Below are positions 1-41,050 of a stretch of 64,000 nucleotides of DNA, piece after piece. The number at the start of each line of letters is the position of its first letter. Positions within the stretch are counted from its first letter, which is position 1. The notes under the pieces are model-generated. The model was not told the origin of the DNA. It did not search any database and saw only the letters and a program-made list of their open reading frames with translations. The stretch is from assembly GCA_964534625.1 (NCBI GenBank), contig CAZHRF010000007.1, positions 11,170-75,169 of the forward strand, given 5' to 3'. This DNA comes from an uncultured archaeon (GTDB lineage: Archaea; Asgardarchaeota; Heimdallarchaeia; Heimdallarchaeales; Heimdallarchaeaceae). The position numbers and the translations under genes were made by a program.

Positions 1-2
1 CT

Positions 3-2402
3 TCTATTATTCCAAAGACTGATTTTACGGATTTAGCTGGAAATAGTTTTTCTCTTAAATTTGAAGATTTATCTGATGATTCTACAATTGATCGTATTTT
101 AGATAATTTAATTGATCAGATGCATTCCTATTTGGAGTTTTACAAAAAACAACCCCAATACCAGAATGATGAGAAGTTTACAAATTATACAACTTGTTTT
201 TCAGTTAATTTTGAAAGAATAATGGATGGTGTTAAATTAATTAAACAGAATAAGATAATTAGGCAGTCATTTCAATTGTTAAATGAAACATTTAAACAAG
301 CAAGTTCTTACGATAGTTGGAGGGTCTTTCAACTATGCTTCATATTGATGCTTATTCCTGATATTGTTGAAAAAAAATCTAGAAGAAATATTACTGAAGT
401 TTTGCATGTACAAACGGGTGGGGGTAAGTCTGAAACTTATTTTGGATGTGTAATTTTTTCAGCCTTTTTTGATCGCTTAACTGGTAAAAATTTTGGACTA
501 ACAGCCATCACAAAGTTTCCATTGCGTATGTTATCTATTCAACAATTACAGAGAATTGCAAGAATAATGATCTTTGCTGATAAAGTCAGGAGAGATTATG
601 AAATAGACGGCGAGCCTTTTTCTGTAGGTTATTTTGTAGGTAATAATATTGACTTTCCTGGTGATAATTGTAAATTAATAAAGGAGATCAAAAACAAGCA
701 GATTAAAGGGAAGATAATCGAAATATGTCCGTTCTGCAAAACTAACAATGTAATTTTGAGTGTTTCTGAGGAAGAAATGACCATTTATCATAAATGTACA
801 GACTGCAAAGAAAAGTTTAACTTGTTTTTTATTGATAATGAGATATATAGAAAAATACCCACTTTTATTGTTTCAACAGTTGATAAGCACTCATCAATAT
901 CACGAAACAGGAGGTACAGGAATCTTATTGGAGGAAAGTTGGATAAATGTCCAAAAGGTCATGGTCTTATTCCACATGGGGATAAATGCTCATATGTAAA
1001 TGAAATAGTAAATGACCGAAAAAACAAGTGTAATGAAACTGGTGAGAGAGTAAATATTGATTTTTCTACAGCCCCTACCTTAATAATTCAAGATGAAATG
1101 CATCTTATCAAAGAAAGCTTTGGAACAATAGATTCTCATTTTGAAAGCTTAATTGAAGTAATGCAGCAAGAAATGAGTGGTTATGGAATAAAAAATATAG
1201 CCATGACTGCAACTATATCTGGTGCGAACCATCAGATAAAGCAGCTATACAATAAACAAACAAATATTTTTCCTTCAAAATCTCCTTTTGGAATGGGAGA
1301 TAATGATTTCTTTCATGAACTAATTGAAGAACATGGTAATGTAAAACTTCAAAGGATTATCCTAGGTTTAAGACCAAATGCTAGAGATAATCAATTTGCT
1401 TGTTCTTTGACACTTAGGCATCTTGCAAATTTTTATTCTGATATTGAAAATAATAGGTCTGAATTTTGTAAAAAGTACGGTTTTAATTATTCTGTGCTAG
1501 ATAAGCTTCTTGAAAGATATAAATCTGGACTTACTTATCATAACAAAAAATCAGATGTTCATACAATGGAATATTATTTACTTGATGTTGTAAACTCGCA
1601 TTTGAAAAAATCAGTTAAAGTACAAGGAAAACCATTAACTGGTGATAACTCTTTAGATGAAATTAAAGAATTAATTGAAGAAATTGAAAATGCTAATTTA
1701 TCTAAACAAAAAGACCTTATTTTTACGTTTGCTACAAGTGTCGTATCACATGGTGTTGATATTGGAAAATGGAACATAATGGAATTTCAAGGAATCCCAA
1801 GATCAACAGCAGAGTATATTCAGTCACTTAGTCGAGTGGGTAGAAAGAATCTAGGTCTAGTATTATTGTGGTTTTATGGTAATAGAGTCCGAGATGTATC
1901 ATTTTATCACAATTTTTCAAACTACCACGATATTTTGGAACATCATGTCAATAGTATTCCTATATCTAGGTGGGCAAAACTTGGTGTGGATCAAACGTTT
2001 CATTCTGTTTTTTGTGCATCAATAATCAACTTTTTTGCTGATAAATATAATCGACCACTTTATACAGTTGATGCTGTAAATGATTTGTTCAAACAAGATT
2101 CAGTAATTGAAGAATTAATTGATTTTATTAAAAAAGCATATCATGTTAATGAATCAAATCCAAAATCACATTTTTTGAATGATTATATTCCAAGAGAAGT
2201 AGAACAACGATTAAAGGCCCTCAAGACCCGTAATTTTAGTCGTAACTCAAGATACTTTTTCCCCATCGCTTTAGATTCTTTATCTAAACCCTTATATCGT
2301 ACTCAGTATGGTATGCGAGGAATACAAGATGAGCTCATAATAAAACCCAGTAGTGATGATAAAAAGTTTGTAGAAGAATATCTAAAAGGTGAGAATAAGT
2401 GA
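3..2402 (+). CDS. SF2 DExH helicase, DISARM DrmA-like; 5' end lies outside the window
   Basis: Walker A QTGGGKSE (nt 411-434), motif II DEMH (nt 1092-1103), motif VI QSLSRVGR (nt 1821-1844). CxxC...CxxC zinc-ribbon insert (CPFCKT...CTDCKE). The frame has no stop between nt 3 and the first in-window ATG at 120, so the protein probably starts upstream. Its stop overlaps the next start (GTGA, 2399-2402). Confidence 0.7.
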   Translation, partial: SIIPKTDFTDLAGNSFSLKFEDLSDDSTIDRILDNLIDQMHSYLEFYKKQPQYQNDEKFTNYTTCFSVNFERIMDGVKLIKQNKIIRQSFQLLNETFKQASSYDSWRVFQLCFILMLIPDIVEKKSRRNITEVLHVQTGGGKSETYFGCVIFSAFFDRLTGKNFGLTAITKFPLRMLSIQQLQRIARIMIFADKVRRDYEIDGEPFSVGYFVGNNIDFPGDNCKLIKEIKNKQIKGKIIEICPFCKTNNVILSVSEEEMTIYHKCTDCKEKFNLFFIDNEIYRKIPTFIVSTVDKHSSISRNRRYRNLIGGKLDKCPKGHGLIPHGDKCSYVNEIVNDRKNKCNETGERVNIDFSTAPTLIIQDEMHLIKESFGTIDSHFESLIEVMQQEMSGYGIKNIAMTATISGANHQIKQLYNKQTNIFPSKSPFGMGDNDFFHELIEEHGNVKLQRIILGLRPNARDNQFACSLTLRHLANFYSDIENNRSEFCKKYGFNYSVLDKLLERYKSGLTYHNKKSDVHTMEYYLLDVVNSHLKKSVKVQGKPLTGDNSLDEIKELIEEIENANLSKQKDLIFTFATSVVSHGVDIGKWNIMEFQGIPRSTAEYIQSLSRVGRKNLGLVLLWFYGNRVRDVSFYHNFSNYHDILEHHVNSIPISRWAKLGVDQTFHSVFCASIINFFADKYNRPLYTVDAVNDLFKQDSVIEELIDFIKKAYHVNESNPKSHFLNDYIPREVEQRLKALKTRNFSRNSRYFFPIALDSLSKPLYRTQYGMRGIQDELIIKPSSDDKKFVEEYLKGENK

Positions 2403-4234
2403 CAGAGGTAAAATTCCACTTTCCGGGTAATAGTGCTCTTTTTAGAGCAACAAAAGATCTTATATTCGTAAAAGGTAAATTAGCTTTCAAAGTCAATTAT
2501 CTCAATACAATTGACTTTGAAGAGAATGATGCTGGTAACTATAAACGAATAATTGATAGGATTTTTTATCTTATTAAAAATAATTATAATAATCGGATAG
2601 AAAAATATAATTTATCCCTTAATAAGATTGATTCCAAAGAAAATTTAGAACTTAAAAAACTCAAATTAATAACATCAAAACCAGGAGAAAGTAAAGCATC
2701 GACTTCAGGATATGCACAAGTTTTTCCTAAAACCTTTGTCTGTGATAAATGTAGTGATTTCAAAGTCGAATATAATCTTAATGATATTTCCAAAAACTGT
2801 CAAGTAACTGGATGTAGTGGTATCTACAAACAAGTATCTGTTGTTAAATTTTGTGAAAAATGTGGTCATGTAGACCAGCTTTTTTATCAGTGTCAGAATA
2901 ACAAAAAACATAGGGTAAAATTATATAGAAAAAAAGCCGATGATTTAACAACTTGGTATTTTCAATGTGCAACATGTAAGGGGAAAAAGGTTGATATTTT
3001 GGGTTTTAGATGCTTTCATGAAGACTTTGTTAGTAAAGTGAAATTATTAGATGACAAAGCTTCAAATTTTAAACCTTTAACTGTACGCGAGGGAGCAATA
3101 TTTATTCCTTCAGTTTATACAATGGTAGATTTACCTTCAAGCAACAAGATTACTGATCAAGCCCTAAATTATATTTCATTGGGTCTAGCTCAAGGTTTAA
3201 TTAAGGATGAACAAGGTAACATTCGATCCTTGGAAAGCATAAATGGGGACTATGAGCTTTATAATAGCTCTCTTGCAAGGAAAAGATTTGGAAAAGATAT
3301 GAGTGACCTTGAATGGATGAAACAGTGTAATGTGTATGAGATTGAACAAATAATTCAAGAATTGAAAGATACAGTTATAGATAGCAGAAATTTAAACTAT
3401 TTATTGGATTATTTATCATTAGCTAGTAATATATCAGAAGATCATCTTGCTCTAAATTTTTCCAACTACCTTTCCACTATTGTTGATGATAAAGAAAAGC
3501 AAATTAAAACAAAACTTTATCAAAAGATGAAAGAAGACTTAAACATTGATGAAATCACGTATATTGAAAATGTGAAGCTGTTAAACATAAATTATGGGTA
3601 TATCCGTGGAGTAAATAAATTCTATGAAGACGGCTTTAAACCACATTTTGAACCAAATTGGTCTAACAAATTTGATTCTGAAAATAATAAATTCGAAGCT
3701 TATGTTTTTCCCTTTGAAACCGAGGGAATATTAATAAGGCTTGATATGGGTTCAATTCTTAAATGGTTAGAGAAAAATAATATTAGGTCTTTCACAAAAG
3801 ATGAATTAGATAATCCTGGTTTAACCATATTAAAGCTAAATGATGATCTTATAGAGGATTTTGTTTTTCCATTATTACATACTTTATCTCATCAAATAAT
3901 TAAACTATCATCTGATTATACAGGAATAGATATTGACTCGCATAGTGAAATTATATATCCTAGAAATGGAGCCATTTTTATTTTTTCTTTGAATAATGTG
4001 AATATTGGCGGATTCAAATATTTATTCGAGAATGCAATATTTGAATTATTTAGAAAGGTAAACACTACTATAGATAGCTGTATATACGATCCCCTATGTA
4101 CTAATTTAAAGGGTGCTTGTTTTTCATGTTTATACTTATCTGAGCATGTATGTAGGTATTTTAACCAACGATTAGATCGTGATTTATATAATGCTAAAAA
4201 GCGTTTTAAGGTGGGATTTTGGGATGTCTCATAA
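2399..4234 (+). CDS. DUF1998 (MrfA-Zn-type) zinc-binding protein, DISARM DrmB-like
   Basis: C-terminal HTLSHQIIK block followed by the Cys cluster DSCIYDPLCTNLKGACFSCLYLSEHVCRYFNQRLDR (nt ~4073-4180), typical of DUF1998. Several N-terminal CxxC pairs (CDKCSD, CEKCGH, CATCKG). GTG start overlaps the helicase stop. Confidence 0.7.
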   Translation: MTEVKFHFPGNSALFRATKDLIFVKGKLAFKVNYLNTIDFEENDAGNYKRIIDRIFYLIKNNYNNRIEKYNLSLNKIDSKENLELKKLKLITSKPGESKASTSGYAQVFPKTFVCDKCSDFKVEYNLNDISKNCQVTGCSGIYKQVSVVKFCEKCGHVDQLFYQCQNNKKHRVKLYRKKADDLTTWYFQCATCKGKKVDILGFRCFHEDFVSKVKLLDDKASNFKPLTVREGAIFIPSVYTMVDLPSSNKITDQALNYISLGLAQGLIKDEQGNIRSLESINGDYELYNSSLARKRFGKDMSDLEWMKQCNVYEIEQIIQELKDTVIDSRNLNYLLDYLSLASNISEDHLALNFSNYLSTIVDDKEKQIKTKLYQKMKEDLNIDEITYIENVKLLNINYGYIRGVNKFYEDGFKPHFEPNWSNKFDSENNKFEAYVFPFETEGILIRLDMGSILKWLEKNNIRSFTKDELDNPGLTILKLNDDLIEDFVFPLLHTLSHQIIKLSSDYTGIDIDSHSEIIYPRNGAIFIFSLNNVNIGGFKYLFENAIFELFRKVNTTIDSCIYDPLCTNLKGACFSCLYLSEHVCRYFNQRLDRDLYNAKKRFKVGFWDVS

Positions 4235-5054
4235 AAGCAGATATGAAAAAATCATATTTAAAACACTGTCAAATATTCCTCCAGAGGGATTAGGAAAAAA
4301 GGAGTTATATAGGATACTAGTTGAAAAAAACATAGATAAAATTGAGTTAAATTTAGTTTTGGATTATTTAAAAATAGAAAATGTTATCTATTTTCAAAAA
4401 AATAGTGATGAGATTATTATAAATAAGAAATCAGCAAATTGGCAACAGTTTTTATCCAATTTGAAACAGAAAAAAGAACCAATTAATAATATTGGCCTCG
4501 TTTTTAATTTCCCTCAAATGGATAAGTTTGGTCTATCTTCAAAATTTAAAATTAATAATGTTGACATTGTAGTTTTATCAGATTGTTTTAAGGCCCTTTT
4601 CAAAAAGGCAAAATCTAACATTAAAATAATATCCCCTTTCATAGATATTCGTGGATTAAAACGTTTTTACAAAACATTGTCAAATAAGGCAAAAAATGGG
4701 GTCAAAATTACAATACTAGCGAGAGACCTTACAAATTCCACTAATAGTCGTAGGTTTAGAAAACTCAAAAAATTTATGGAAAATACTAGTCCTAAATTGA
4801 ATAATATGTTTAGGTTCTATGAGTACCACTATATAAATGGAAGAGGTTTAATATTAAGTAGTATTCATTCAAAGTTAATTATTGTAGATGGTAGACATTT
4901 TTATTGTGGTAGTGGAGAGATAAGAGAAAATTCCTTTACCAAGAATCTTGAAAATGGTGTTTGTCAATATAATACAGTTCATGCAAAAAATTTTGAATTA
5001 GTCTTTGATTATCTTATTTCTATATCAAATGAAATTATCTGGGGCGATTACTAA
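4224..5054 (+). CDS. Single-HKD phospholipase D-family nuclease (Nuc-like), DISARM DrmC-like
   Basis: HxK(x4)D(x6)GS motif IHSKLIIVDGRHFYCGSGE at nt 4866-4916. N-terminal winged-helix-like segment. The ORF track starts at 4179, but ATG 4224 gives only an 11-nt overlap with the upstream gene and is preferred. Its stop overlaps the next start (TAATG). Confidence 0.75.
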   Translation: MSHKSRYEKIIFKTLSNIPPEGLGKKELYRILVEKNIDKIELNLVLDYLKIENVIYFQKNSDEIIINKKSANWQQFLSNLKQKKEPINNIGLVFNFPQMDKFGLSSKFKINNVDIVVLSDCFKALFKKAKSNIKIISPFIDIRGLKRFYKTLSNKAKNGVKITILARDLTNSTNSRRFRKLKKFMENTSPKLNNMFRFYEYHYINGRGLILSSIHSKLIIVDGRHFYCGSGEIRENSFTKNLENGVCQYNTVHAKNFELVFDYLISISNEIIWGDY

Positions 5055-7684
5055 TGATGTTTATTGATAATTTGTTTATACAAAATGAAAATTGGAAAAC
5101 AGGTTCAGCATTTGAAAGACTAGAAAATATTAGTCCTTTAACTAAAGAAGTTTCACTTTCGGTATTTAAAGCATTAAAAAAAGATTTCAATGTTATTATA
5201 TCATACCCCGATAACATTTTTGCTCCTTTATCCGTAATTTGTGGTTATTATGCTGATTTATCAAGATCAAAACAAAAAGATATTATGGTTTACTCACATA
5301 ATAATAATGCAAAAATCGATGAAAACCCCCAAAAGTTTCATATTCGTAATTTTTCTAGATTAACATATTATAAAGCATTTTTATATGAATGGATAATACC
5401 ATTTGAGTATAACGAAAGTGATAATAGTCTAATCTATTGTGCGAATCTAAATTTGATAAAAAACCGCAAATATAAGCGCGAATTGAAGAAAAGGCAAATA
5501 GAAGCTATTTGTAATGATAAAATTCCTAGTATTATCTTTTCAGGGACAGATACACCATTAAATCTAACTCAAATTGACTGGTTAAAGATCGGTAATAGAA
5601 CCCATGAACACGAATTAAAATTCGATTTTGGGTTAATAGTCTTTGAAAATATGGATCGCTTAATACATAATGAGTATAATATGAATATCTTTTTGGAATG
5701 GTTGAACAATATTACAAAAAAAGAAACAAAACTTCTTTTTCATTTTTCTAATCCATATAATAAATTCATTAGAGAAATAAAGGAAAAAACCAATTCACTA
5801 CTCTATCATTGTAGTATGAGTTTTTTACATAAACAAAAGTCATATTTTGAGAATGTTTATCCTCAAACTATAAAAAGCAAGAAATTAGTTAGGAAATATA
5901 ACTTAGATTCTCCAGATACATACGAGGCTTCTAATCAAATAATTCCTTTGAAGCCAATAGCTACTTATGATTTTGATAAGCGGTTGAGAAAGTGTAGAAA
6001 TCTGTTTTATAATTTAAAAACTACATCGGACGATTTAAACAAAACCAACTATTATTCCATTAAACACTTATTGTATACCATAAAAAATATGGCTGTAAAG
6101 CCAAAAAACTATACGGTTTTATATTATGATAAATACAATGATCATTATTATTATATAACGGTAATTGAACTGCTTAGAAAACTTAAAGCTTTACTAGCGG
6201 ATAAAATTTCATTTGTAGAGTTTGCAAATGAATTTGAATCTTTGGTTGAAGATTTATCAATTAGTAAAGATATTACAGATCCGAATTTCTCAAATCCAAA
6301 AACAAAAAATAATGCATTGGTTGATTTTACCTTGAAAATAATTAAGTATAGACTTAACTTATTAGAGTTAACCGAATATCCTCATTTGAATGCATACCTA
6401 GGTAATTTTGTCGACAAAATTCAACCTGTAAAAAATGTAAAAGATTATTCAGTAATAATTGGAGTTCAAACATCACGAGAAAGAAATATGCTTTATGCTG
6501 ATTTTAATTCACTAGCGATGGCGCAAGAAGGAAATATTGATTTAATCAAACGAATTAAAATATACAGTCTGAAACAACTAACTCATAAAAGATTCATACC
6601 TCATAATGTTGATTTGTTACTTACAGGTTCATTAGCTCTAAAGAATTTTCAAGAATACTTTAGAGGTTATGATAATATATTTGTCGTAAGCTATAAAGGT
6701 AAAGATTATGATTCAATATTGGAACATATTGATATTGTTGAAAGAATTAGACCAGAAGAAAATAGACAATCTTTGAGATACATACATGAACTAAAGCAAA
6801 AGACTAAAATGAAAAAACCTGATTTCCTCGAAGAATATGATTTAAGTGAAGAAAAAATCTCTATTAGAGCTTTAATGAAAAAAGAAAGTAAGGACATTTA
6901 TGGGCGAGTGAGAGATATGGTTTTAACTTCACCAAAATATTCTAATGCAAAAGATCAAGAGGAAGAAGTCAAAGAAATTGAAACTATAACAAACAAAATT
7001 TCACAATCTAATGATGATATTGATGATTATGATATGATTATAAGTCTTGAAAATATGGATAATGGTCAAGCTAAAACTATTAAGGTAAAAGAGAATTGGT
7101 CCTTTTTATGCGTTAAGGATAAAAAGGAAATGAAACTAGAAGAAAAAATTGTTGATGAATTAACAAATGGCGACTTTCTAATATTATTAGATCAAGATGA
7201 GAAAAGGAGCTTTTTTGATTTTATAATTGATACATTTAATTTGGAGGAAGGTGTAGATGTAGAACTTGTTTCCTCTTGGAAACATATTCTTGATAGATAT
7301 GTAACAAATAATGAAGAAGATTCTTCTTTATTATATCAAGAATATGAAAAATTGTGCTGCGAACATAATTATGAGCCAAAACATATCAACACATTTAGAA
7401 ACTGGATTAAAGGGAACGTAATAGGAACTAGAGATCCAGAAGATATCTATATATTGGGTTTACTAACTGGCAATGAAAAACTTGTAGACCAATATAAGCA
7501 TATTCATAAAGAAATTGAAGAGCTTTGGAAAATTAGAAGGCTAGTTGGAAAGAAAATAAATAAAATTGTTGGAGAACTTCTTGGAGGTAGTTTCAACCAA
7601 TATGATTTAAATTATGAAGAATCTATTATTTATGATAAAATTACTATATACAGTATAACTAGTTTAGAGCATGTTGAAGAGTAG
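5054..7684 (+). CDS. Hypothetical 876-aa protein, fourth gene of the helicase/DUF1998/PLD cassette
   Basis: Long uninterrupted ORF. ATG shares one base with the PLD stop codon (TAATG, 5052-5056). No Walker A, DExx, HKD, HEPN or methyltransferase motif recognised. Acidic low-complexity stretch around nt 6950-7030. Confidence 0.6.
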   Translation: MMFIDNLFIQNENWKTGSAFERLENISPLTKEVSLSVFKALKKDFNVIISYPDNIFAPLSVICGYYADLSRSKQKDIMVYSHNNNAKIDENPQKFHIRNFSRLTYYKAFLYEWIIPFEYNESDNSLIYCANLNLIKNRKYKRELKKRQIEAICNDKIPSIIFSGTDTPLNLTQIDWLKIGNRTHEHELKFDFGLIVFENMDRLIHNEYNMNIFLEWLNNITKKETKLLFHFSNPYNKFIREIKEKTNSLLYHCSMSFLHKQKSYFENVYPQTIKSKKLVRKYNLDSPDTYEASNQIIPLKPIATYDFDKRLRKCRNLFYNLKTTSDDLNKTNYYSIKHLLYTIKNMAVKPKNYTVLYYDKYNDHYYYITVIELLRKLKALLADKISFVEFANEFESLVEDLSISKDITDPNFSNPKTKNNALVDFTLKIIKYRLNLLELTEYPHLNAYLGNFVDKIQPVKNVKDYSVIIGVQTSRERNMLYADFNSLAMAQEGNIDLIKRIKIYSLKQLTHKRFIPHNVDLLLTGSLALKNFQEYFRGYDNIFVVSYKGKDYDSILEHIDIVERIRPEENRQSLRYIHELKQKTKMKKPDFLEEYDLSEEKISIRALMKKESKDIYGRVRDMVLTSPKYSNAKDQEEEVKEIETITNKISQSNDDIDDYDMIISLENMDNGQAKTIKVKENWSFLCVKDKKEMKLEEKIVDELTNGDFLILLDQDEKRSFFDFIIDTFNLEEGVDVELVSSWKHILDRYVTNNEEDSSLLYQEYEKLCCEHNYEPKHINTFRNWIKGNVIGTRDPEDIYILGLLTGNEKLVDQYKHIHKEIEELWKIRRLVGKKINKIVGELLGGSFNQYDLNYEESIIYDKITIYSITSLEHVEE

Positions 7685-7757: not shown

Positions 7758-8140
7758 TTACATTAATTCTATACTTTTTCCAGCATTCTTCATTTTTTTC
7801 GTCTTTTCTTCTCCAAAAAATATTGCCGCTATAGCCCCTATCCCTATTTTTGCTTTTGGAAATCTTTTTTTTAATGTTTAACACTATTTCTGACATATTC
7901 TATCCAATATGTAAATAATGACATAATCCCGATTTCATCAGGTACGAAGCTATCTTCTTCTTTAAACAAAATATGATTTTCTCTTAGTTTTCCTTTTACA
8001 ATTTCTACTTCATGTCCTTTGATCTCCAACAAAGCAGCCATTTTTAATAATCCAATTGGCAAAAAGTCTTTATGATTCTTACTTTTATGAGATGTAGGAA
8101 ATTCGGGGTCTTCTAACAAATATTTCATTACACCACTCAC
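7758..8140 (-). pseudogene. Decayed paralog of the adjacent B12-binding-like radical SAM gene (N-terminal ~125 codons only)
   Basis: The 89-aa ORF (MKYLLEDPEFPTSHKSKNHKDFLPIGLLKMAALLEIKG...SLFTYWIEYV) aligns with residues 1-95 of the 437-aa gene. After the stop at 7871-7873, homology continues in the -1 frame: KKRFPKAKIGIGAIAAIFFGEEKTKK versus NKYPHSKIVVGGIAASLFGKEKTKK. That frame ends at 7758. The radical SAM core is absent. Confidence 0.7.
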
Positions 8141-8249: not shown

Positions 8250-9563
8250 TCAATACAAAATACTATTATGTATTAGATGATCTTTACAATCTATCTCTTT
8301 ATAGTTTCTACTGGGATCCCAAAATGAAATTTCATGTTTATTCAAGAAATCTTCTTTTTCCATTTTTTTATCTACATCAAAATATTTTTCCTTAATTTTA
8401 TATTCTTTTTTTTGTTGTTCAAATGTTTTAATGTGAAACTCTAAATCCATTCTCACACAAATATTATGCCTTCTGACATTTTTTCTGAATTGTTTTATAA
8501 GTATATCAGACCAAATTGGTTCATGTATATAATAATCCTCCTTGGTTTGCCCAAGCTTCCTTGGATTATACTGATCATATTCCTGATCTAAGGGTCTATA
8601 TCTACAATCAGCGATTTGTACTTTCCATTCAAAGCATTTTGCACGCTTTTTTTCCATTTCATTAAAAGGAATGTCATAATTATAAAGCATGAATACTTCT
8701 AGATTCTTACTATTGTAACCCGCTTCTTCTAAGATGTCCAATTGTTTTTTAATCTGTTCTGCTTGCTTATATCCCCAATCCCATGCAATTCGTACTTGGC
8801 GAAATCCAGCTGTTTTAATTTTGGTTGCCAATTCTGGATCTTTTCTAAGCAGTCTCCCATCAAACCCACTTTGAGATTCACACCATTTTATTGTCTTATC
8901 TTCTTTTAATTGTATTAGTTCATCCAATATATCATGAATATGTGGGTTTTGTAGGAAATTGTTGTCATAGAAAACTAGTTTCTTTTTGAAAATTTTCTTT
9001 TTTATTGATTTTTCATAACTTTCTACTGGTTCAATGATCCATACTCCACAAAATTCGCATTTTCTAAAGCAACCTCTTTGTGAATGAATAATTTGGTAAT
9101 CTACTTCTGGAACGTATTTATTATACATCTGTTTCAATTTATATCGTGGTATCTCTTCTGCTTCTTTCATAATAGTCTTGAAAACAGAATCACAACCTGT
9201 AAGCTTTTTAGTCTTTTCTTTTCCAAACAAGCTTGCAGCTATTCCACCAACAACAATTTTGGAGTGCGGATATTTATTTCTGTGAACGGAAACACATTCT
9301 TTAACATAAGAGATCCAATAGGTGAATAGCGATGTTATCCAGACTTCATTTGGTATGAACTCTTTTGGAGTTTCATTATTTTGGAAAAAGTGGTCTAATG
9401 TTACATATCTATTATTTTTATCATTCATGACAATTTTTACTCTATTACCTTTTAATTCTAACATTGCTGCAAGTTTTAATAAACTTGAAGGTAAGAAGTT
9501 TTTATGTTTTTTACTCTTAGTAGGAATAGGGAAGTCTGGCTGTACGAGTAAGTATTTTTTCAT
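8250..9563 (-). CDS. Radical SAM enzyme with N-terminal B12-binding-like domain
   Basis: CxxxCxxC motif GCFRKCEFC encoded at nt 9048-9071 (Cys165/169/172). The N-terminal LPSSLLKLAAMLELKGNRVKIV pattern is typical of the Rossmann-like B12-binding domain fused to radical SAM cores. Confidence 0.75.
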   Translation of the reverse strand: MKKYLLVQPDFPIPTKSKKHKNFLPSSLLKLAAMLELKGNRVKIVMNDKNNRYVTLDHFFQNNETPKEFIPNEVWITSLFTYWISYVKECVSVHRNKYPHSKIVVGGIAASLFGKEKTKKLTGCDSVFKTIMKEAEEIPRYKLKQMYNKYVPEVDYQIIHSQRGCFRKCEFCGVWIIEPVESYEKSIKKKIFKKKLVFYDNNFLQNPHIHDILDELIQLKEDKTIKWCESQSGFDGRLLRKDPELATKIKTAGFRQVRIAWDWGYKQAEQIKKQLDILEEAGYNSKNLEVFMLYNYDIPFNEMEKKRAKCFEWKVQIADCRYRPLDQEYDQYNPRKLGQTKEDYYIHEPIWSDILIKQFRKNVRRHNICVRMDLEFHIKTFEQQKKEYKIKEKYFDVDKKMEKEDFLNKHEISFWDPSRNYKEIDCKDHLIHNSILY

Positions 9564-9737: not shown

Positions 9738-10223
9738 ATGGACTATAATGATTATAATTTCCGAAATGCAAAATCCATTTTGAAAGATAAATTAGTGTTA
9801 TCCAAAGTTGATCAAACTTTACAAAACTTGAGTAAAATATCAAGTGATGAAAGAGTCTTCACACAAATAGTCTCACATTTTGAAAATTATCATATTTGGG
9901 AAAAAAATTATTCTTTAACAGGACAGAATGAAATCAACGAAAAATATCATTTATATGACAAATTTAACAAGATAGCAATTGGTATTACAATCACAAGAAA
10001 AGAATTTGTAACTGAAACAATTCTGAAACTTATGTTAGGCTATAATGATTTAATAACAGATGTAGGCATAATTATTGTACCAAACTCACTTGAGGATGCA
10101 GAAAAACTTGCTAGTTCATACCAGGCTTCACCTACACTTGAATATTGTAAGTCTTATCTTGAAACATACAGTTCTATAGTCACCATACCTGTTTGGGTCA
10201 TAGGTTTGATTATAGAAAAGTAA
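9738..10223 (+). CDS. Hypothetical protein (161 aa), possibly a degenerate restriction-endonuclease-like fold
   Basis: ORF with its own AT-rich upstream region. The segment YDKFNKIAIGITIT...DVGIIIVP resembles the strand pattern of BglII-like nucleases, but the acidic catalytic residues are not evident. Confidence 0.35.
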   Translation: MDYNDYNFRNAKSILKDKLVLSKVDQTLQNLSKISSDERVFTQIVSHFENYHIWEKNYSLTGQNEINEKYHLYDKFNKIAIGITITRKEFVTETILKLMLGYNDLITDVGIIIVPNSLEDAEKLASSYQASPTLEYCKSYLETYSSIVTIPVWVIGLIIEK

Positions 10224-10276
10224 GTAGAAATTATCCTATACTCTTTTTCTTATCAATATTTATAATCCAATATGTT

Positions 10277-11128
10277 TCAAGTCTTTCTAAAGGCATATTT
10301 TCTGCCTTTTTCATAATACATTTTGGTTATATCTAAGATATTACTGGTAATATTTTTTTTGAGCTGCCATAATTTGAATTGTATTTTGTCATCATTGATA
10401 ACATAATTTACCTCAAAATGGATTAGGATAATCTCACGCAATTCACCAATTGATTTAAGATATATATAGGGTAAAACAAGCTGATGTAGACTCTGTGATT
10501 CTTTAGTTCCCCTTTTCAACTCTATTAAAACAACATATTTATCATTTTCCACTGCATGATCTATTTCAAATTGCGTTTCTTCAATAATAACAATATTGTT
10601 TCCAATTTTACATTCTCCAACTACAATGCTTTGTAGTCTTCCACATGGTTCTAGTGGTTTTCCAACACTATATCCAAGAACATTTTCTAAATAGTGTCTT
10701 AAAATCTTTAATCGTTTAAACAGAAAGAAACCATTTTCTTCGTTGTTAATCTCACTGCGCAATAATAATGACGGTTCTTTGATTATATTTGGTTTTAAGT
10801 TTAATGAATTATCTTTCTTGCAGATGGGAAGTTTTGGGAAAATAGATGGATACTTACGATTTGGTCCTGTTTTTGTTATTACACACCCTCCACTTACATG
10901 TCTGAATAACTCTAAGTCATTCTCTTTTAATATTCTCGGTAATGTTTTATATTCATAATGGGGGATCATTCTAACTGGTGATGAATTAACCGCCTTCTCC
11001 TTGAACACTTCATTAGTTATTTCAAACGTTGTAGGACCGTTTTTCATCTTTAGCCATTTTTGTATTTCTTTACTGGCAGAACTTTTATAGAAAATTTTTT
11101 CCCAATTTGTATTTTTACTCATTAACAA
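10277..11128 (-). CDS. Hypothetical protein with PD-(D/E)xK nuclease-like motif
   Basis: FEIDHAVENDKYVVLIELKRG gives a D-x10-ExK arrangement in a beta-strand context. No other recognisable domain. Confidence 0.45.
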   Translation of the reverse strand: MLMSKNTNWEKIFYKSSASKEIQKWLKMKNGPTTFEITNEVFKEKAVNSSPVRMIPHYEYKTLPRILKENDLELFRHVSGGCVITKTGPNRKYPSIFPKLPICKKDNSLNLKPNIIKEPSLLLRSEINNEENGFFLFKRLKILRHYLENVLGYSVGKPLEPCGRLQSIVVGECKIGNNIVIIEETQFEIDHAVENDKYVVLIELKRGTKESQSLHQLVLPYIYLKSIGELREIILIHFEVNYVINDDKIQFKLWQLKKNITSNILDITKMYYEKGRKYAFRKT

Positions 11129-11314
11129 GACTTTTATTTATTTGTTTAAAAAAATCTTTCCTAGATCGGATATAATACAGCTGTAAGTATTTATTGTGTC
11201 TTGATTTCAATTTATGTAATAGGATTTTATTAATAAAAGTAGAATCAAAAGGACTACTACCTAGTTAGAAGGGCATATTAAGACGTTTACTGCTTATTGT
11301 CTTCTTTCATCTTA

Positions 11315-12952
11315 CTAATCTTCTTCAGGAAATATTTTTTTCATATTATTCAGTACTTTTTCTTTTCCCTTTATGTCCCCAATAGATCTAAACAGTTCTA
11401 AGCTCTTGTTGAAATATTTTTTAGCTTTCTTTTTGTTTTTTAAACTTGAATATACATTTCCCATATTAGCTAAAATATTCGCTTGACCTTGCAAGTCATT
11501 GAGTTCATGTTTCAATGCTAGGGCTTCTTCTAATAACTTTAAAGCCTCACTTTCTTTTTCTTGTTCCAAATATATTGTGGCTATATTGTTTAAACATATA
11601 CTCTCTCTAAATGTATCCCCTGTTCTTTTATGTAGATTAAGACTGAGCGTATAATGATCTAAAGCTTTGCTATAGTCTTTGTTTTTTGAAAATAAATTTC
11701 CTATACTGTTAATCACGATAGCTTCAGCATTTTTATCGTTAAGTTTTCTATTAATTTCCAATGATTGTTCATAATATTCTTTAGCTTTAGAAAGATTACT
11801 GGTTTTTGTTAAAACTGATCCCATATTATGCAACGTTGCAGCTTGAATTTTTTGATCTTTCATTTCTTTAGCGTTTTCAAGTGTTTCATTATAGTATTCT
11901 AATGCTTTAGTATACTTTCCCCAATTCTCATAAACATTTCCTATGTTATTGATGATAATGTTCTCCATTTTTAGATCGTTATTTTCTGAAGCCATTGTTT
12001 GTGCTTTCATAAAGTGCCCTAATGCTTTCTGATACATTCCTTGTTTATTATACAGTAGGCCAATATTGCTGTATACTGTATAAACGATCGCTTTATTTCC
12101 ACACGATTCATTAATTGCTATACTTTTTTTATAGTATTCAATTGCTTTTTCAAATTGTCCTGTAATTTCATATAGAGCAGCTAAGTTATTCGTTATTATT
12201 GCTTCCAAGTTCTTATCTTTTATCATCTTTGCTCCATATAGCGCCTCTTCATAATTAATAATGGCTTCTTTGTTCTCACCTTGCTGTTTGTGTAATAGCC
12301 CAATATTATTTAATATTCTAACTTGAAGTTCAACATTATTTGTTGTTTTAGCCATTTTCAGCGCTTTCGAATAATAGTCCTTTGCTTGCTTGTAATTCCC
12401 TAACTTTTTTTCAATGAAACCAATATTATTAGCTGCTAACGCTGCTGCATGTAGATCATCTAACACTTCGTTAAGTGCTAGAGATTTTTCATAATACTCT
12501 TTAGCTAATCCCATTTCTTTCAGTTGCTCATATAGATACGCTAGGTTGTTTAAGGTTACCCCCTCTCCTACTTTATCATTAATTTTTCTTCTTATTTCAA
12601 GTGACCATTCAAAATACTTTATAGCTGCCTTAGTTTCATTTAATTTCATAGAACAAGCTGCTAAGTTATTTAATGTGTTTCCTGCTTCTTTTAGATCATT
12701 CAACTTTTCTCGTAACTCTAAAACCTTTTTAAATAGCTTACTTGCCATAGAATAATTTTTCATGTCATAGAAAACACTTGCCATTCTATTTGTAAGATTT
12801 GCTTCTCCTTCCTTGTTATCTGTTTTGTTGTATTCGCTAATGGCTCTTTCCCACTTTTTATACCACTCAGTAATATTGCCTTTTTGTAGATGTTTTTTTC
12901 CCTCTTTCACAAGAGAATTAATTTGATCTTCATTTTGGTTCATAAGGATCAC
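11315..12952 (-). CDS. Tetratricopeptide (TPR) repeat protein
   Basis: More than 10 tandem ~40-aa repeats with the pattern NNIG..Y...G.Y.KA..YY..SL.I...L.D (TPR_12-like). No NTPase domain. Confidence 0.85.
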   Translation of the reverse strand: MILMNQNEDQINSLVKEGKKHLQKGNITEWYKKWERAISEYNKTDNKEGEANLTNRMASVFYDMKNYSMASKLFKKVLELREKLNDLKEAGNTLNNLAACSMKLNETKAAIKYFEWSLEIRRKINDKVGEGVTLNNLAYLYEQLKEMGLAKEYYEKSLALNEVLDDLHAAALAANNIGFIEKKLGNYKQAKDYYSKALKMAKTTNNVELQVRILNNIGLLHKQQGENKEAIINYEEALYGAKMIKDKNLEAIITNNLAALYEITGQFEKAIEYYKKSIAINESCGNKAIVYTVYSNIGLLYNKQGMYQKALGHFMKAQTMASENNDLKMENIIINNIGNVYENWGKYTKALEYYNETLENAKEMKDQKIQAATLHNMGSVLTKTSNLSKAKEYYEQSLEINRKLNDKNAEAIVINSIGNLFSKNKDYSKALDHYTLSLNLHKRTGDTFRESICLNNIATIYLEQEKESEALKLLEEALALKHELNDLQGQANILANMGNVYSSLKNKKKAKKYFNKSLELFRSIGDIKGKEKVLNNMKKIFPEED

Positions 12953-29704: not shown

Positions 29705-30262
29705 TTATTTTATCGCAATCAAAACATATGAACCTTCAGTGTCTTCAAAAGATGACGTTCGAAATTTTTTTTCTTGTAATAATTTATCAATCTCTTCGTT
29801 TTTAAAAAATTTACAGCCAAAGAATACTGATTCTATAAAGACTATTATCTTGTTTTGCAACTTAGCTGGATTGACATCTCTAATAATTAGGATCCCCTCT
29901 TTTTGTACTATCCTATATAGTTCTGATAATAAGTGAGAAACATTGTCAACATGATGTAAAGTATTGTTCAATATTATCTGATTGAATGAGCGATCCTTAA
30001 GTGGAAGCAAACACCCATCTCCATTCAGTAATAATAATTTTTTAGTCTTTTTCTTAGCTTGTTCAAGCATGCTTAACGAGCTATCCAATACTAAGCATTC
30101 GTTTGTGTACTCAGATAATGCTATAGAAACCCTTCCTGTTCCTCCGCCCAGATCTATAATTAATGAATCTTTATCTAAAGGTAATATGTCTAATAACTGT
30201 TCTATTTTAGAACTAGGGATGATTTTATCATAGAATCTGGCGATTAGAGAGAATATATTCAA
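29705..30262 (-). CDS. Class I SAM-dependent methyltransferase
   Basis: Motif I IIDLGGGTGR and post-I/II blocks (LPLKDRSFNQIILNNTLHHV). Confidence 0.8.
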   Translation of the reverse strand: MNIFSLIARFYDKIIPSSKIEQLLDILPLDKDSLIIDLGGGTGRVSIALSEYTNECLVLDSSLSMLEQAKKKTKKLLLLNGDGCLLPLKDRSFNQIILNNTLHHVDNVSHLLSELYRIVQKEGILIIRDVNPAKLQNKIIVFIESVFFGCKFFKNEEIDKLLQEKKFRTSSFEDTEGSYVLIAIK

Positions 30263-30347
30263 AGTAATCCTAGACTGGGTATTCTTGTAATACTATTTAT
30301 TTTTTTGCTTTGTTATATTTTCGTTAAAAACTAATAATTTATAATAA

Positions 30348-31721
30348 TTAATTTTTATCTAAAATTAGTGTTTTTTCTAAATAATCTTTTATAATTATCA
30401 ACGCTTTGCAATCGTCTGAATTGTATGAAATGGCTCTTTCCAGCGATTTCTTGTCTTTGTTATAGAACCATTTTTCAAATAGAAGAATGCTTGACGCTCC
30501 ATCCATTAGCGATTCATCCCATTCAAATCCTAAATGATTGGCAACATTTTTCAAGGTATACGATGCTACTGGTAGTATAATATGACTTTTAAAGAGCTTA
30601 AATAAATCAACTGAGTTATCCAATATTTTTTGTATCTTCTCTTTAGGTATGTTATACTTTTGTGCCATTTTTTTCAAAAAATGCCTTTCTACTGGAGACC
30701 AGTGGTAAAGCACAAAATTATTGCCATTTTTGAATAAATGTTTGATAAACTTGTGATACATACTTTTTTCATCAGAGAGTTTATTGGCAATAAATGGGTG
30801 ATAAACTGTTTTTTGTTGATCTCTTGAAAAACAGCCTATTAACCACGTGAATTCATGGTTGGGTGATAATTCCATATCTACAAAATGTTCTTGTTGGACT
30901 CGTGGGAACTTAAATGGTTTTTGTATAATCGTTTTATTATCTTCTAAGGACTGGGCTTGCAAAATAAAGTATTTTATGTCCTTTTTTGATACATAGTTAG
31001 ATGTCAAAACTTGTTCATTCATTTGACTCAAGTCACGGGTGTTTTTAATCCCTTTCTCAAAAAATTCTTTTTTTACTCTTTTTCCTATTCCTGAAATAGT
31101 TGTTAAATCATCAATTTCAAAAGCTAGTTTTTTACAATATTTTTTCCACTCACAAATTTTGCAGTCTCGTGTATAAATAGGACTAGGACTTTTTTTTCCT
31201 GTTTTAATAGCAATAATTTGTTGTAAATCTTCCTTAAGTTGGTTAATTGTATCTTCCACAAGTATTTCTTTCTCTTGATCTTTGGCTGAAATAACGAAAA
31301 AATCTATTTTTTGATCTAAAACTAAACAAGTTATATATACATTAAATGTGCCTTCCATTATCATATTTCTACTCATTTTAATTTTATTTCTCTGGAAATA
31401 GGGGATGTATGTATAATTCCCATATTTGCATTTTCCCTCTTTTTTTACAAGCTTATTGATTTTTGTTATAAACTGCTTATACATAAGAATAGCTTGATAA
31501 ATTTCTTGTTTCCCTTGTTTAACCTGAGAGAGAACATACTTGAAATTCTGATGATATTGAGACATTTTCTTGTCTTGGAATTTTCTTACTCTTCTTGATT
31601 TGCTTTTTCTAATAATAGGATGTACACGAATTTCTTCAAATGGACCATGATATGTAAGATAAAGCAATAAAGGGCAATCATAATAAAGACGTACATCGTG
31701 GTGCGAGACCAATTCTAACAT
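30348..31721 (-). CDS. RecB/Cas4-like nuclease fused to an RNase H-like domain (TM0106-type architecture)
   Basis: Cys16 (CPLLLYL) plus CKICEWKKYC (CxxCx5C) gives Cas4/AddB-type Fe-S ligands. HhH segment ISGIGKRVKKEF. C-terminal YprB/RNase H-like region. Confidence 0.6.
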   Translation of the reverse strand: MLELVSHHDVRLYYDCPLLLYLTYHGPFEEIRVHPIIRKSKSRRVRKFQDKKMSQYHQNFKYVLSQVKQGKQEIYQAILMYKQFITKINKLVKKEGKCKYGNYTYIPYFQRNKIKMSRNMIMEGTFNVYITCLVLDQKIDFFVISAKDQEKEILVEDTINQLKEDLQQIIAIKTGKKSPSPIYTRDCKICEWKKYCKKLAFEIDDLTTISGIGKRVKKEFFEKGIKNTRDLSQMNEQVLTSNYVSKKDIKYFILQAQSLEDNKTIIQKPFKFPRVQQEHFVDMELSPNHEFTWLIGCFSRDQQKTVYHPFIANKLSDEKSMYHKFIKHLFKNGNNFVLYHWSPVERHFLKKMAQKYNIPKEKIQKILDNSVDLFKLFKSHIILPVASYTLKNVANHLGFEWDESLMDGASSILLFEKWFYNKDKKSLERAISYNSDDCKALIIIKDYLEKTLILDKN

Positions 31722-39601: not shown

Positions 39602-41050
39602 ATGTATTCTCATTACCAAAACGCGTTTGAATATTGCGTGAAAGAGTTAAAGAAACATGATATATCCTATGTGATATATGAAATTAACAGTGAATTACTT
39701 GAAAAAGTGAACTTTTTTATATGGAAAAAAATGGATTTCATTTATAAATTTGCAGAAAAAACGAACTGTCATTTAGCTATTGTAGGTGGTTTTGTTCGTG
39801 ATATACTTATGGAGAATCCTTCAAATGATGTGGATATTGTTCTTTTTAGTGGAAATATAGATGAATTTACATCCGATATAGCAAAAAGAATGGATGCAAA
39901 AATAGGAAAAATGAACAATAAAACTTTAACTACCCAAATTAGATTTAAGGATGGACTAGTATTTGAATTTAACCAAATTAGAAAAGAGAAATATGACGAA
40001 TTTCCATCAAGACAACCTAAAGTTGAAGAAGGCACTATTGTTGAAGATTTGAAAAGAAGAGATTTTACAATAAATACTTTTCTTATGTTTGGTACTCAAT
40101 ACATTGACATTTTTGGAGGAAAGGAAGATCTAGAAAAAAAAATAATAGACACGACACGTACGCCAGTTATTGTGTTTAAAGAAGACTACCTAAGAATGTT
40201 TAGAGCAGTAAGATTCGCTTGTAAACTGGATTTTATGATAGCAAAGAGAGTTAAAGACGGAATAAAAAAGAATGCGAAGAATCTCAAAAAGGTTCCTCAT
40301 GAAAGAATAGTGGAAGAACTTAAAGAATCAGTTAGATTTAACTCAAAAAAAATGTTTAATCTACTAGTACAATTGGAGATAGTAAAAGTTCTGATCCCTG
40401 AGCTGAAAAATAAGCAATTAAATCCAAATTTGTACGTTACTAGAAAATTATATGATAAGATAGAAAAAAAATTGCACTATATTGATAAAAGAAGCAAAAA
40501 AATAGAAGATATAATATTGATGAAGTTAACCCCTATTTTCATGGAAATAGGGCGAAAGGCAATTAATATAAAAAATGATTTGTGTCAACCCCCCAATTTA
40601 GATGCAGTTTCAAAAGTATTAAGGCGGTTTAAGTTTTCCAATGAAGAGATTTATCAAATTTCATTACTGTCAAGAAATACATCGAGCTTCTTCTATTTTG
40701 TTACTCATGACTGCTCTTTGCTAGAAAAAAGAAAGTTTTTACTGAAAGTTGGGATCCATTTAGAAGCAATTATTACGCTTGCCAAATCAGAGAATAGATT
40801 GTTATGTGACCCCTTAGAATTAAGCCCATTAATTTCAGAGTTAAAAGATTTGAACAAAGATAGATCATTAATTGATGTAGAACCAGCATTAGACGGATTC
40901 CAAATACAAGAAATATTTAATTTCGAAGGAAAAGAAATAGGACAAGCAAAAGAATTGTTGGTTGATGCTATAATGGCAGAAAAAATTGTTAATAATGAAA
41001 AAGAGTGTATTGATTATATAAAGAAAAATGAAAAAGAGATTAAAAATTAA
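39602..41050 (+). CDS. Class II (bacterial/eukaryal-type) tRNA nucleotidyltransferase / poly(A) polymerase family protein
   Basis: Head-domain motifs IVGGFVRDILMENPSNDVDIV, RRDFTINTF, EDYLRMFRAVRFACKLDF and PHERIVEELKES. Confidence 0.75.
   Translation: MYSHYQNAFEYCVKELKKHDISYVIYEINSELLEKVNFFIWKKMDFIYKFAEKTNCHLAIVGGFVRDILMENPSNDVDIVLFSGNIDEFTSDIAKRMDAKIGKMNNKTLTTQIRFKDGLVFEFNQIRKEKYDEFPSRQPKVEEGTIVEDLKRRDFTINTFLMFGTQYIDIFGGKEDLEKKIIDTTRTPVIVFKEDYLRMFRAVRFACKLDFMIAKRVKDGIKKNAKNLKKVPHERIVEELKESVRFNSKKMFNLLVQLEIVKVLIPELKNKQLNPNLYVTRKLYDKIEKKLHYIDKRSKKIEDIILMKLTPIFMEIGRKAINIKNDLCQPPNLDAVSKVLRRFKFSNEEIYQISLLSRNTSSFFYFVTHDCSLLEKRKFLLKVGIHLEAIITLAKSENRLLCDPLELSPLISELKDLNKDRSLIDVEPALDGFQIQEIFNFEGKEIGQAKELLVDAIMAEKIVNNEKECIDYIKKNEKEIKN

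Follow-up and report, generated by a model that had tools for sequence, protein, structure and literature searches.

A DISARM variant of archaea and bacteria in which a radical SAM protein probably stands in for the DNA methylase

The 64,000-nucleotide (nt) stretch of contig CAZHRF010000007.1 analysed here (the window), which derives from an uncultured archaeon, opens at positions 1-7684 with an operon of four genes that profile searches assign to the defence system DISARM, and genes for a B12-binding-domain radical S-adenosylmethionine (SAM) protein, hereafter rSAM, lie on both sides of it. We propose that the translationally coupled operon and rSAM together probably represent a distinct variant of DISARM, in which rSAM replaces the C5 DNA methylase DrmMII as the self-marking module. 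The proposal builds on the gene identities, the operon structure, the absence of a methylase at the cassette, the conserved linkage of rSAM to DISARM genes in relatives, the reuse of the same family with other modules, its fold class and its occurrence as a solo gene in viruses, which are established here. The original prediction for this DNA had recognised a DISARM-related cassette and overlooked the fifth component, the radical SAM gene, which lies just beyond the region that it covered.

The four open reading frames (ORFs) overlap on the + strand (3, open, to 2402; 2399-4234; 4224-5054; 5054-7684), and all the motifs and junctions that had been described for them were found at the positions given. 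drmA (1-2402, truncated at its 5′ end by the window edge) specifies a superfamily 2 (SF2) helicase that matches DrmA in PADLOC (4.3e-113) and DISARM_DrmAS in NCBIfam (2e-89; 301 bits, under the equivalog cut-off of 950) and has motifs I (GGGKS, 417-431), II (DEMH, 1092-1103) and VI (QSLSRVGR, 1821-1844). Its full length of 1115 amino acids (aa) is provided by contig L001 (Logan SRR7048224, a public metagenome), which matches the window with 0 mismatches across 14,934 nt and places the drmA start at L001:4002, 946 nt upstream of window position 1. drmB (2399-4234, +), whose GTG start overlaps the drmA stop as GTGA at 2399-2402, encodes the DUF1998-type, multi-cysteine partner of DrmA; it matches DrmB in PADLOC (1.1e-27) and DrmB_fam in NCBIfam (9.3e-20; 71 bits, under the cut-off of 240) and is 33-38% identical to DrmB of related cassettes. 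The suggestion that this protein ends in DUF1998 finds support in a C-terminal cysteine cluster (C561, C567, C574, C577, C585) and in the DrmB profiles, both of which span the region concerned, and none from Pfam, which reported no DUF1998 at E<=0.01. drmC (4224-5054, +) encodes a phospholipase D (PLD)/HKD-family nuclease and overlaps drmB by 11 nt (ATGTCTCATAA, 4224-4234); the start at 4224 agrees with an independent gene call, and an alternative GTG start lies at 4179. DrmC has one HKD motif (HSKLIIVDGRHFYCGS, of the form HxK(x4)D(x6)GS, at 4866-4913) and matches Pfam PLDc_2 (7.5e-14), NCBIfam DISARM_DrmC_I (1.1e-8) and the PADLOC DrmC profiles (down to 1.8e-9), with the PADLOC profile MkoB scoring slightly better (8.6e-12). 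The DISARM relationship is thus borne out by the profiles of all three proteins.

The fourth gene (5054-7684, +), whose ATG overlaps the drmC stop as TAATG at 5052-5056, had been described as an unknown partner carrying nothing recognisable. This description has to be given up, because its product matches Pfam PF24957 DrmE_C (3.5e-10, 40.3 bits, gathering cut-off 27) and, over residues 576-853, NCBIfam DrmE_fam (E=1.4e-20, 73.2 bits, just below the cut-off of 80) and is therefore a divergent DrmE. No PADLOC profile matched it, DrmE included. A word-index search of 5.8 billion proteins found only two relatives (on L003 and L004); drmE keeps the same position in all related cassettes, and hhalign shows a longer fourth gene of about 1060 aa in some loci (the c13 variant) to be a homologue of the DrmE-like family (probability 98.7%, E=3e-16). 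Since all four Drm proteins score below the NCBIfam trusted cut-offs, they belong to a divergent, distant DISARM clade. The closest relative of the window's DrmE (P0002, 34% identity) is encoded on L004, a 3.4-kb contig, where it is followed at L004:3132-3437 (+) by the N-terminus of an SNF2-type, DrmD-like helicase with the motif DEVGLGKT, at which the contig ends.

Class 2 DISARM, reportedly described by Ofir and colleagues in 2018, is the known system to which this core is to be compared. Its gene order, as summarised in PMC11529989, is drmE-drmA-drmB-drmC-drmMII, ending in the C5 methylase DrmMII. Like class 2 systems, the cassette has all four non-methylase proteins in one tightly coupled operon, in a locus that is AT-rich, horizontally spread and defence-island-like; unlike them, it has the order A-B-C-E, it has no DrmMII or other DNA methylase, and rSAM flanks the operon here and takes the terminal position in relatives. 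With the fourth gene assigned to DrmE, the core is by its profile matches of class 2 type in content and not in gene order, so that the earlier view that it fits neither class layout holds for the order and fails for the proteins.

Three copies of the rSAM gene adjoin the operon, all on the - strand. rSAM-down (8250-9563, 437 aa) is intact, lies 566 nt past drmE and has the motif CxxxCxxC in the form CFRKCEFC. Its intact paralogue rSAM-up (L001:2198-3595, 465 aa), upstream of the window and divergent from drmA, is 57% identical to it, and both paralogues retain 73/73 of the residues that are invariant in the family. Pfam matches of the window copies are weak (Radical_SAM at about 5e-4 to 1e-3, below cut-off; B12-binding at 1e-4 and 2.4e-3). 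The third copy (7791-8140), detected by tblastn with the two intact ones, is decayed: about the first 120 codons are left, disrupted by a stop or frameshift and convergent with drmE, and in two frames they are 47% and 43% identical to the N-termini of the intact copies and about 50% identical to family N-termini from more than 40 loci. The short ORF at 7871-8140 is part of this remnant. The idea that the cassette had lately entered a tandem rSAM pair was considered and rejected, because the intact copies share only 57% identity with one another and the remnant 43-47% with either of them, values that make any rSAM duplication old; in a neighbour-joining tree, which is star-like, the two intact copies are sisters. 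Another local duplication, like that at the window, is present in a Thorarchaeota metagenome-assembled genome, where family genes stand in tandem on the same strand (L040:8694-9758 and 10001-11161) at a locus with none of the four cassettes described below.

The association of rSAM with DISARM genes recurs in relatives, in which it usually takes the form of an operon. When 80 genome loci were sampled around rSAM and their ORFs clustered, ten had DrmA-DrmB-DrmC-DrmE(-like) genes followed directly by rSAM, the distance from drmE stop to rSAM start being -4 nt in L030, 0 nt in L024 and +10 nt in L050, with an overlap in L031. An independent sample was anchored on DrmE and comprised 21 metagenome loci, plus the window and L003, the last an A-B-C-E operon with a co-directional rSAM homologue immediately 5′ of drmA. 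rSAM stands directly 3′ of drmE in 8 of the 21, and L090 has a GHKL ATPase and rSAM pair directly 5′ of drmA; the loci that were too short to judge set aside, rSAM was found in 11 of 13 informative DrmE-anchored loci (window and L003 counted), across DrmE identities of 23-41%. Upstream or convergent placement of rSAM, as in L003 and L047, thus occurs outside the window as well. Taken together, the window and about 20 related loci, which come from both archaea and bacteria and from at least 9 phyla, show the linkage. Archaeal hosts of the 80 rSAM-anchored loci are Asgard, Methanobacteriota, Thermoplasmatota, ANME-1 and Methanosarcinales, bacterial hosts are Bacteroidota, Thermotogota (Kosmotogaceae) and Omnitrophota, and cultured carriers of family members include Methanobrevibacter filiformis DSM 11501, whose locus L080 is of the Pbe type, and Candidatus Velamenicoccus archaeovorus LiM, whose locus L078 is of the GHKL type. 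The neighbourhoods of the relatives, with genes for TIR-LRR proteins, Schlafen-like helicases, DUF2357-PDDEXK proteins and STAND NTPases, are defence islands, and the variant is horizontally spread; its patchy distribution across phyla is the opposite of core synteny, as had been expected of a defence cassette. In several loci a gene for a small DUF1232 protein (about 140-155 aa) stands after the DrmABCE cassette or on both sides of it (L047:3449-3916 and 12438-12875; L099:12461-12886; L101:13056-14351), the last two being loci without rSAM, and is also present in L032 and L082, which are of the Pbe type described below.

No DNA methylase was found in the cassette or its surroundings. Pfam revealed no DNA methyltransferase in the downstream genes, which comprise two short ORFs, the 437-aa minus-strand ORF, a BglII-like nuclease, a DUF6997 protein and a tetratricopeptide repeat (TPR) protein, nor was there one among the genes called in about 12 kb upstream on L001 and L086, where the 465-aa minus-strand ORF, two sensor kinases, a 483-aa protein and a major facilitator superfamily transporter are encoded. 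Scans for the C5 motif PCxx[FWY]S and the N6/N4 motif [DNS]PP[YFWH], which detected their positive controls, were negative in the window flanks, in L001, L003 and L086, in all DISARM-type loci (about 20 related cassettes) and inside every DrmE-anchored cassette. Neither DrmD (an SNF2 helicase) nor DrmMI (an N6 adenine methylase) occurs in the window or L001. The original prediction had noted a methyltransferase-free downstream side, with which Pfam and motif scans agree, and had called for extension beyond the upstream edge; the 12 kb there contain no drmMI or drmMII, and drmE proved to be the fourth gene of the operon itself. The sole methyltransferase-like motif found in the window is a class I SAM-methyltransferase motif, IIDLGGGTG, in a small ORF (29708-30292, -) that is without a DNA-methylase motif, lies 22 kb from the cassette and adjoins a gene for a TM0106-family RecB-like nuclease (30348-31721, -; 2e-76).

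The rSAM family, whose proteins are about 420 aa long, is large and has features of both halves of a B12-binding-domain radical SAM enzyme. A word-index search found at least 1862 members at E<=1e-10, the best available name being 'cobalamin-dependent protein', and a HMMER scan of 1.84 billion representatives found 157 cluster representatives at E<=1e-30. Precomputed annotation assigns PF02310 to most homologues and PF04055 to many. In a 60-sequence alignment 73 positions are invariant, among them C165, C169 and C172 of the CxxxCxxC motif as well as C310, C320 and C369, which belong to a C-terminal domain of basic character. The whole protein is basic, with a mean net charge of +6.5 for the C-terminal 86 aa. 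The AlphaFold2 model of rSAM-down (pLDDT 90.9, pTM 0.89) combines the CxxxCxxC motif with a partial TIM barrel, as expected of a radical SAM protein, and has an N-terminal Rossmann domain of the B12-binding type. In Foldseek its best matches in the PDB are AprD4 (E=4e-10, TM-score 0.56), CysS, TokK and OxsB (E=4e-10 to 4e-6), and isolated corrinoid-binding domains are matched as well, so that the modelled fold class is that of B12-binding-domain radical SAM enzymes. CysS and TokK are cobalamin-dependent methylases, and AprD4 is a B12-independent dehydratase. While rSAM resembles the class B enzymes TokK, CysS and OxsB, and their look-alike AprD4, in its N-terminal Rossmann domain, radical SAM barrel and CxxxCxxC motif, it is unlike class B enzymes in its distinct basic C-terminal domain, in having no NCBIfam family and no PDB chain that matches the 60-sequence profile in a sequence search, and in a context of restriction-like cassettes and virus genomes instead of pathways for natural products or cofactors. 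A few family members are fusions of 757-797 aa with an extra N- or C-terminal region (P0361, P0363, P0382), and these extra domains might reveal the substrate.

The same family is reused with three other restriction-like modules. In 24 of the 80 loci rSAM follows PbeA (an HKD nuclease and SF2 helicase, 3e-225), PbeC (a CxC/DndD-like ABC ATPase, 9e-130) and a DndE-like protein of about 146 aa; in another 24 it follows a GHKL ATPase, whose N-terminal domain matches the BbrUII/HgiDII restriction-enzyme family (2e-26), and a partner of about 330 aa; and in 5 it follows a ParB-like protein, a small protein, an SNF2 helicase and a second ParB-like protein. Two loci have the GHKL and Pbe modules in one same-strand array, within about 5 kb ahead of the single rSAM in which it ends (rSAM at L059:8547-9689 and L060:10001-11227), which suggests that several readers share one mark. 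In all these contexts rSAM takes the place that a DNA methylase has in relatives. The PbeABCD system, reportedly described by Xiong and colleagues in 2019, is like the present one in joining a restriction-like module to a terminal, modification-like gene, and about 26 of the 80 rSAM loci bear Pbe genes; the window, in contrast, has none. Published Pbe/CxC-DndE systems are paired with DndCDEA phosphorothioation or sometimes with C5 or N4 cytosine methylases, with no mention of a radical SAM partner (Krishnan et al. 2024, PMC10853773). DNA would be the only substrate common to the partner sets of the four cassettes.

Eleven viral contigs of IMG/VR carry rSAM relatives (39-51% identity) without any cassette, among small co-directional genes. 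According to PHROG matches, the viral gene immediately precedes that of the large terminase in L110 and has terminase and portal genes in its vicinity in L117 and a primase gene in L115; in L118 and L119 it is immediately followed by a C5 DNA methyltransferase with the motif PCQAFS. The viral copies keep the catalytic cysteine triad and 57-72 of the 73 invariant residues. In GenBank phages and PLSDB plasmids only distant relatives were found (<=31% identity). Viruses are known to carry orphan modification enzymes or methylases with which they evade restriction, and by analogy to these, as modifying enzymes acquired alone, the solo viral rSAM supports a protective, DNA-modifying role over that of an effector toxic to the host. 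Three of the viral contigs have the solo rSAM followed by a 283-aa protein (L111:2963-3814, L113:5560-6411, L114:5101-5952) which weakly matches, at 1.6e-6, the PHROG family labelled 'DNA repair photolyase' (phrog_9252); if this label denotes a radical SAM enzyme of the spore-photoproduct-lyase type, as we presume, the two genes possibly form a two-enzyme viral module.

We infer from these contexts that rSAM acts on DNA, that it leaves a mark there and that DISARM reads this mark. In the mechanism that we favour, DrmA and DrmB would load on incoming DNA, as in characterised DISARM, and the PLD nuclease DrmC and DrmE would assist in blocking or degrading it, while rSAM would place a covalent mark on the host DNA by radical chemistry and thereby exempt it. 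The most plausible mark would be C-methylation at a carbon out of reach for ordinary SN2 methyltransferases, with methyl-cobalamin as the methyl source if the N-terminal domain binds B12. At the window, where the copy next to drmE has decayed, the two intact paralogues would supply the rSAM function from the opposite strand. Dnd/Ssp phosphorothioation and the Dpd 7-deazaguanine system offer a functional analogy, in that the mark by which a multi-protein restriction module recognises self DNA is made by an unusual enzyme; rSAM has no homology to the DndA-E, Ssp or Dpd modification enzymes, and the analogy comes from gene context. A broader reading, which we advance tentatively, would be that the family installs a radical-chemistry DNA mark not described before, for example a methyl group on a non-nucleophilic carbon, which serves as self signal for at least four unrelated machineries (DISARM DrmABCE, Pbe/CxC-DndE, the GHKL restriction-enzyme-like module and ParB-SNF2) and whose gene viruses of archaea and bacteria have captured for anti-restriction. 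The variant itself has a substantial chance of involving a DNA modification of a new kind.

Several observations weigh against these proposals. The fold does not by itself imply a methylase, because AprD4, the top structural match, works without B12; PADLOC and NCBIfam hold no family name for rSAM, and we found no paper describing the family in the open-access and bioRxiv literature. The absence of methylases is based on Pfam searches of selected neighbours and on motif scans, as distinct from profile scans of every ORF, and that of DrmMII covers the cassette and its flanks, which leaves room for a methylase elsewhere in the genome. Two closely related DrmABE contigs with enough flank (L099, L101) have no rSAM within 5-10 kb, and in one of the two an N6/N4 methylase fragment lies at a distance of 3.6 kb. 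Sixteen of the 80 rSAM loci, several of them cut by contig ends, have none of the four cassettes. At the window itself the rSAM genes are no part of the operon and run opposite to it, the one closest to drmE being a pseudogene.

Alternatively, rSAM could be a true component of the system in another capacity, as an effector, sensor or maturation enzyme. It could make a modified nucleotide, as viperins do, or inflict radical damage on invader DNA, and antiviral radical SAM proteins that do not mark self DNA are known in the prokaryotic viperins and in OpnA of Ophion (10.1101/2025.09.30.679545). That the best structural match is a dehydratase and not a methylase is in keeping with such a role, as is the report, summarised in PMC11529989, that DISARM recognises DNA ends via a trigger loop, independently of sequence (Bravo 2022). 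We nevertheless regard this alternative as unlikely: rSAM is found in precisely the cassettes that have methylase-bearing relatives and lack a DNA methylase themselves, their partner proteins differ so completely among the four types that no common protein substrate is apparent, and a solo viral gene beside a DNA methylase or terminase is hard to square with a toxic effector on the host side. It is decidedly improbable that the locus is an ordinary class 2-like DISARM, with no methylase of its own or with one acting in trans, and that rSAM is an island neighbour or an independent single-gene system. Opposite-strand, duplicated and decayed genes are indeed expected of mobile island content, rSAM has many different neighbours and sometimes none, defence genes are known to be inserted into DISARM, BREX and restriction-modification systems or added at their ends (10.1101/2024.01.29.577857), and L099 and L101 do without it. 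Chance neighbours, however, would not hold position and strand across such divergence, and rSAM is present in most of the informative DrmE-anchored loci, from about 9 phyla, usually in the same operon position with stop and start adjacent or overlapping, and with no methylase in any cassette.

The truncated and frameshifted rSAM directly 3′ of drmE, in a locus rearranged relative to the canonical A-B-C-E-rSAM order, could also signify that the whole is a decaying, non-functional remnant whose cognate rSAM is the pseudogene at 7791-8140. This is very unlikely, since each of the four drm ORFs is unbroken, their junctions are coupled and the catalytic motifs are conserved, the flanking paralogues keep every invariant residue, and L003 and L047 likewise have rSAM upstream or convergent. 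Lastly, an SF2 helicase with a DUF1998-type cysteine module is, by textbook knowledge, also the architecture of MrfA, so that a DNA-repair module could be imagined in place of a defence system, as the original prediction had allowed for its first two genes. We rejected this reading, the least credible of those considered, because MrfA is a single polypeptide with helicase and DUF1998/MZB, whereas here helicase and cysteine-rich protein are separate, as are DrmA and DrmB; the best profile matches are all to DrmA and DrmB, a PLD nuclease and DrmE share the operon, and the relatives lie in defence islands.

Replacement of DrmMII by rSAM, our preferred reading, would mean that a form exists, of DISARM and of three other restriction-like systems, in which a radical SAM enzyme and not a classical SN2 methyltransferase does the self-marking, with a DNA modification that is not yet catalogued and is probably invisible to standard methylome calling. 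PADLOC and DefenseFinder rules require a methylase for DISARM, and the variant would probably have been missed by them. It would explain the "methylase-less" DISARM, Pbe and GHKL cassettes of anaerobes and archaea, and it would offer new enzyme chemistry for epigenetics, potentially DNA-labelling tools, together with a matching viral counter-defence; should the broader reading hold, epigenetic restriction-modification would gain a new class, hosted by an Asgard archaeon among others. On a conservative reading too, the annotation of the fourth gene is corrected to DrmE and a five-gene DISARM variant spanning archaea and bacteria is defined. We found no open-access paper or bioRxiv preprint on a radical SAM partner of DISARM, Pbe or CxC/DndE systems, and searches of the same literature for defence-island B12-binding or anti-phage cobalamin returned nothing on this linkage. 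PADLOC candidate lists do hold some radical SAM proteins embedded in defence systems; the only match of the present family to PADLOC is a marginal one, of rSAM-up to the candidate PDC-M51A (E=5.7e-4).

Immediately past rSAM-down, 175 nt away and divergent from it, lies a gene for a 161-aa BglII-like type II restriction endonuclease (9738-10223, +; Pfam Endonuc-BglII 1.6e-8 over nearly the full model), with no methyltransferase nearby. It could form a minimal nuclease/rSAM pair with rSAM-down. Directly beyond it, on the same strand as the rSAM genes, are those for the DUF6997 protein (10277-11128, -; 283 aa) and the TPR-repeat protein (11315-12952, -; 545 aa). The BglII-like and DUF6997 proteins were considered as conserved partners of rSAM and rejected; because the 80 rSAM loci contain no homologue of either, both genes are treated as local neighbours.

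With respect to composition and host, the drm region has a GC content of 28.6% (1-7684) versus 32.9% at 13-64 kb, so that the AT-richness that had been noted by eye is real but modest. The assignment to an archaeal genome also stands: proteins of Candidatus Heimdallarchaeaceae share about 70% identity with the glycyl-tRNA synthetase encoded at 45867-47396, which supports a Heimdall-like Asgard archaeon as the host. Strain variants without the cassette were sought, and L086 and L087, which are identical to L001 up to the point where they end in the rSAM-up/drmA intergenic region, give no evidence of a presence/absence polymorphism. An Rfam scan of the window found no RNA features. A second B12-binding/radical SAM protein, of the TIGR04013 MJ_1487 family (47717-49303, -; 7e-30), is encoded among the housekeeping genes of the window; it is unrelated and does not belong to the defence-linked family. 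On this otherwise Heimdall-like archaeal contig, the CCA-adding tRNA nucleotidyltransferase (39602-41050, +) best matches bacterial-type (class II) models (tRNA_CCA_actino, 2e-39).

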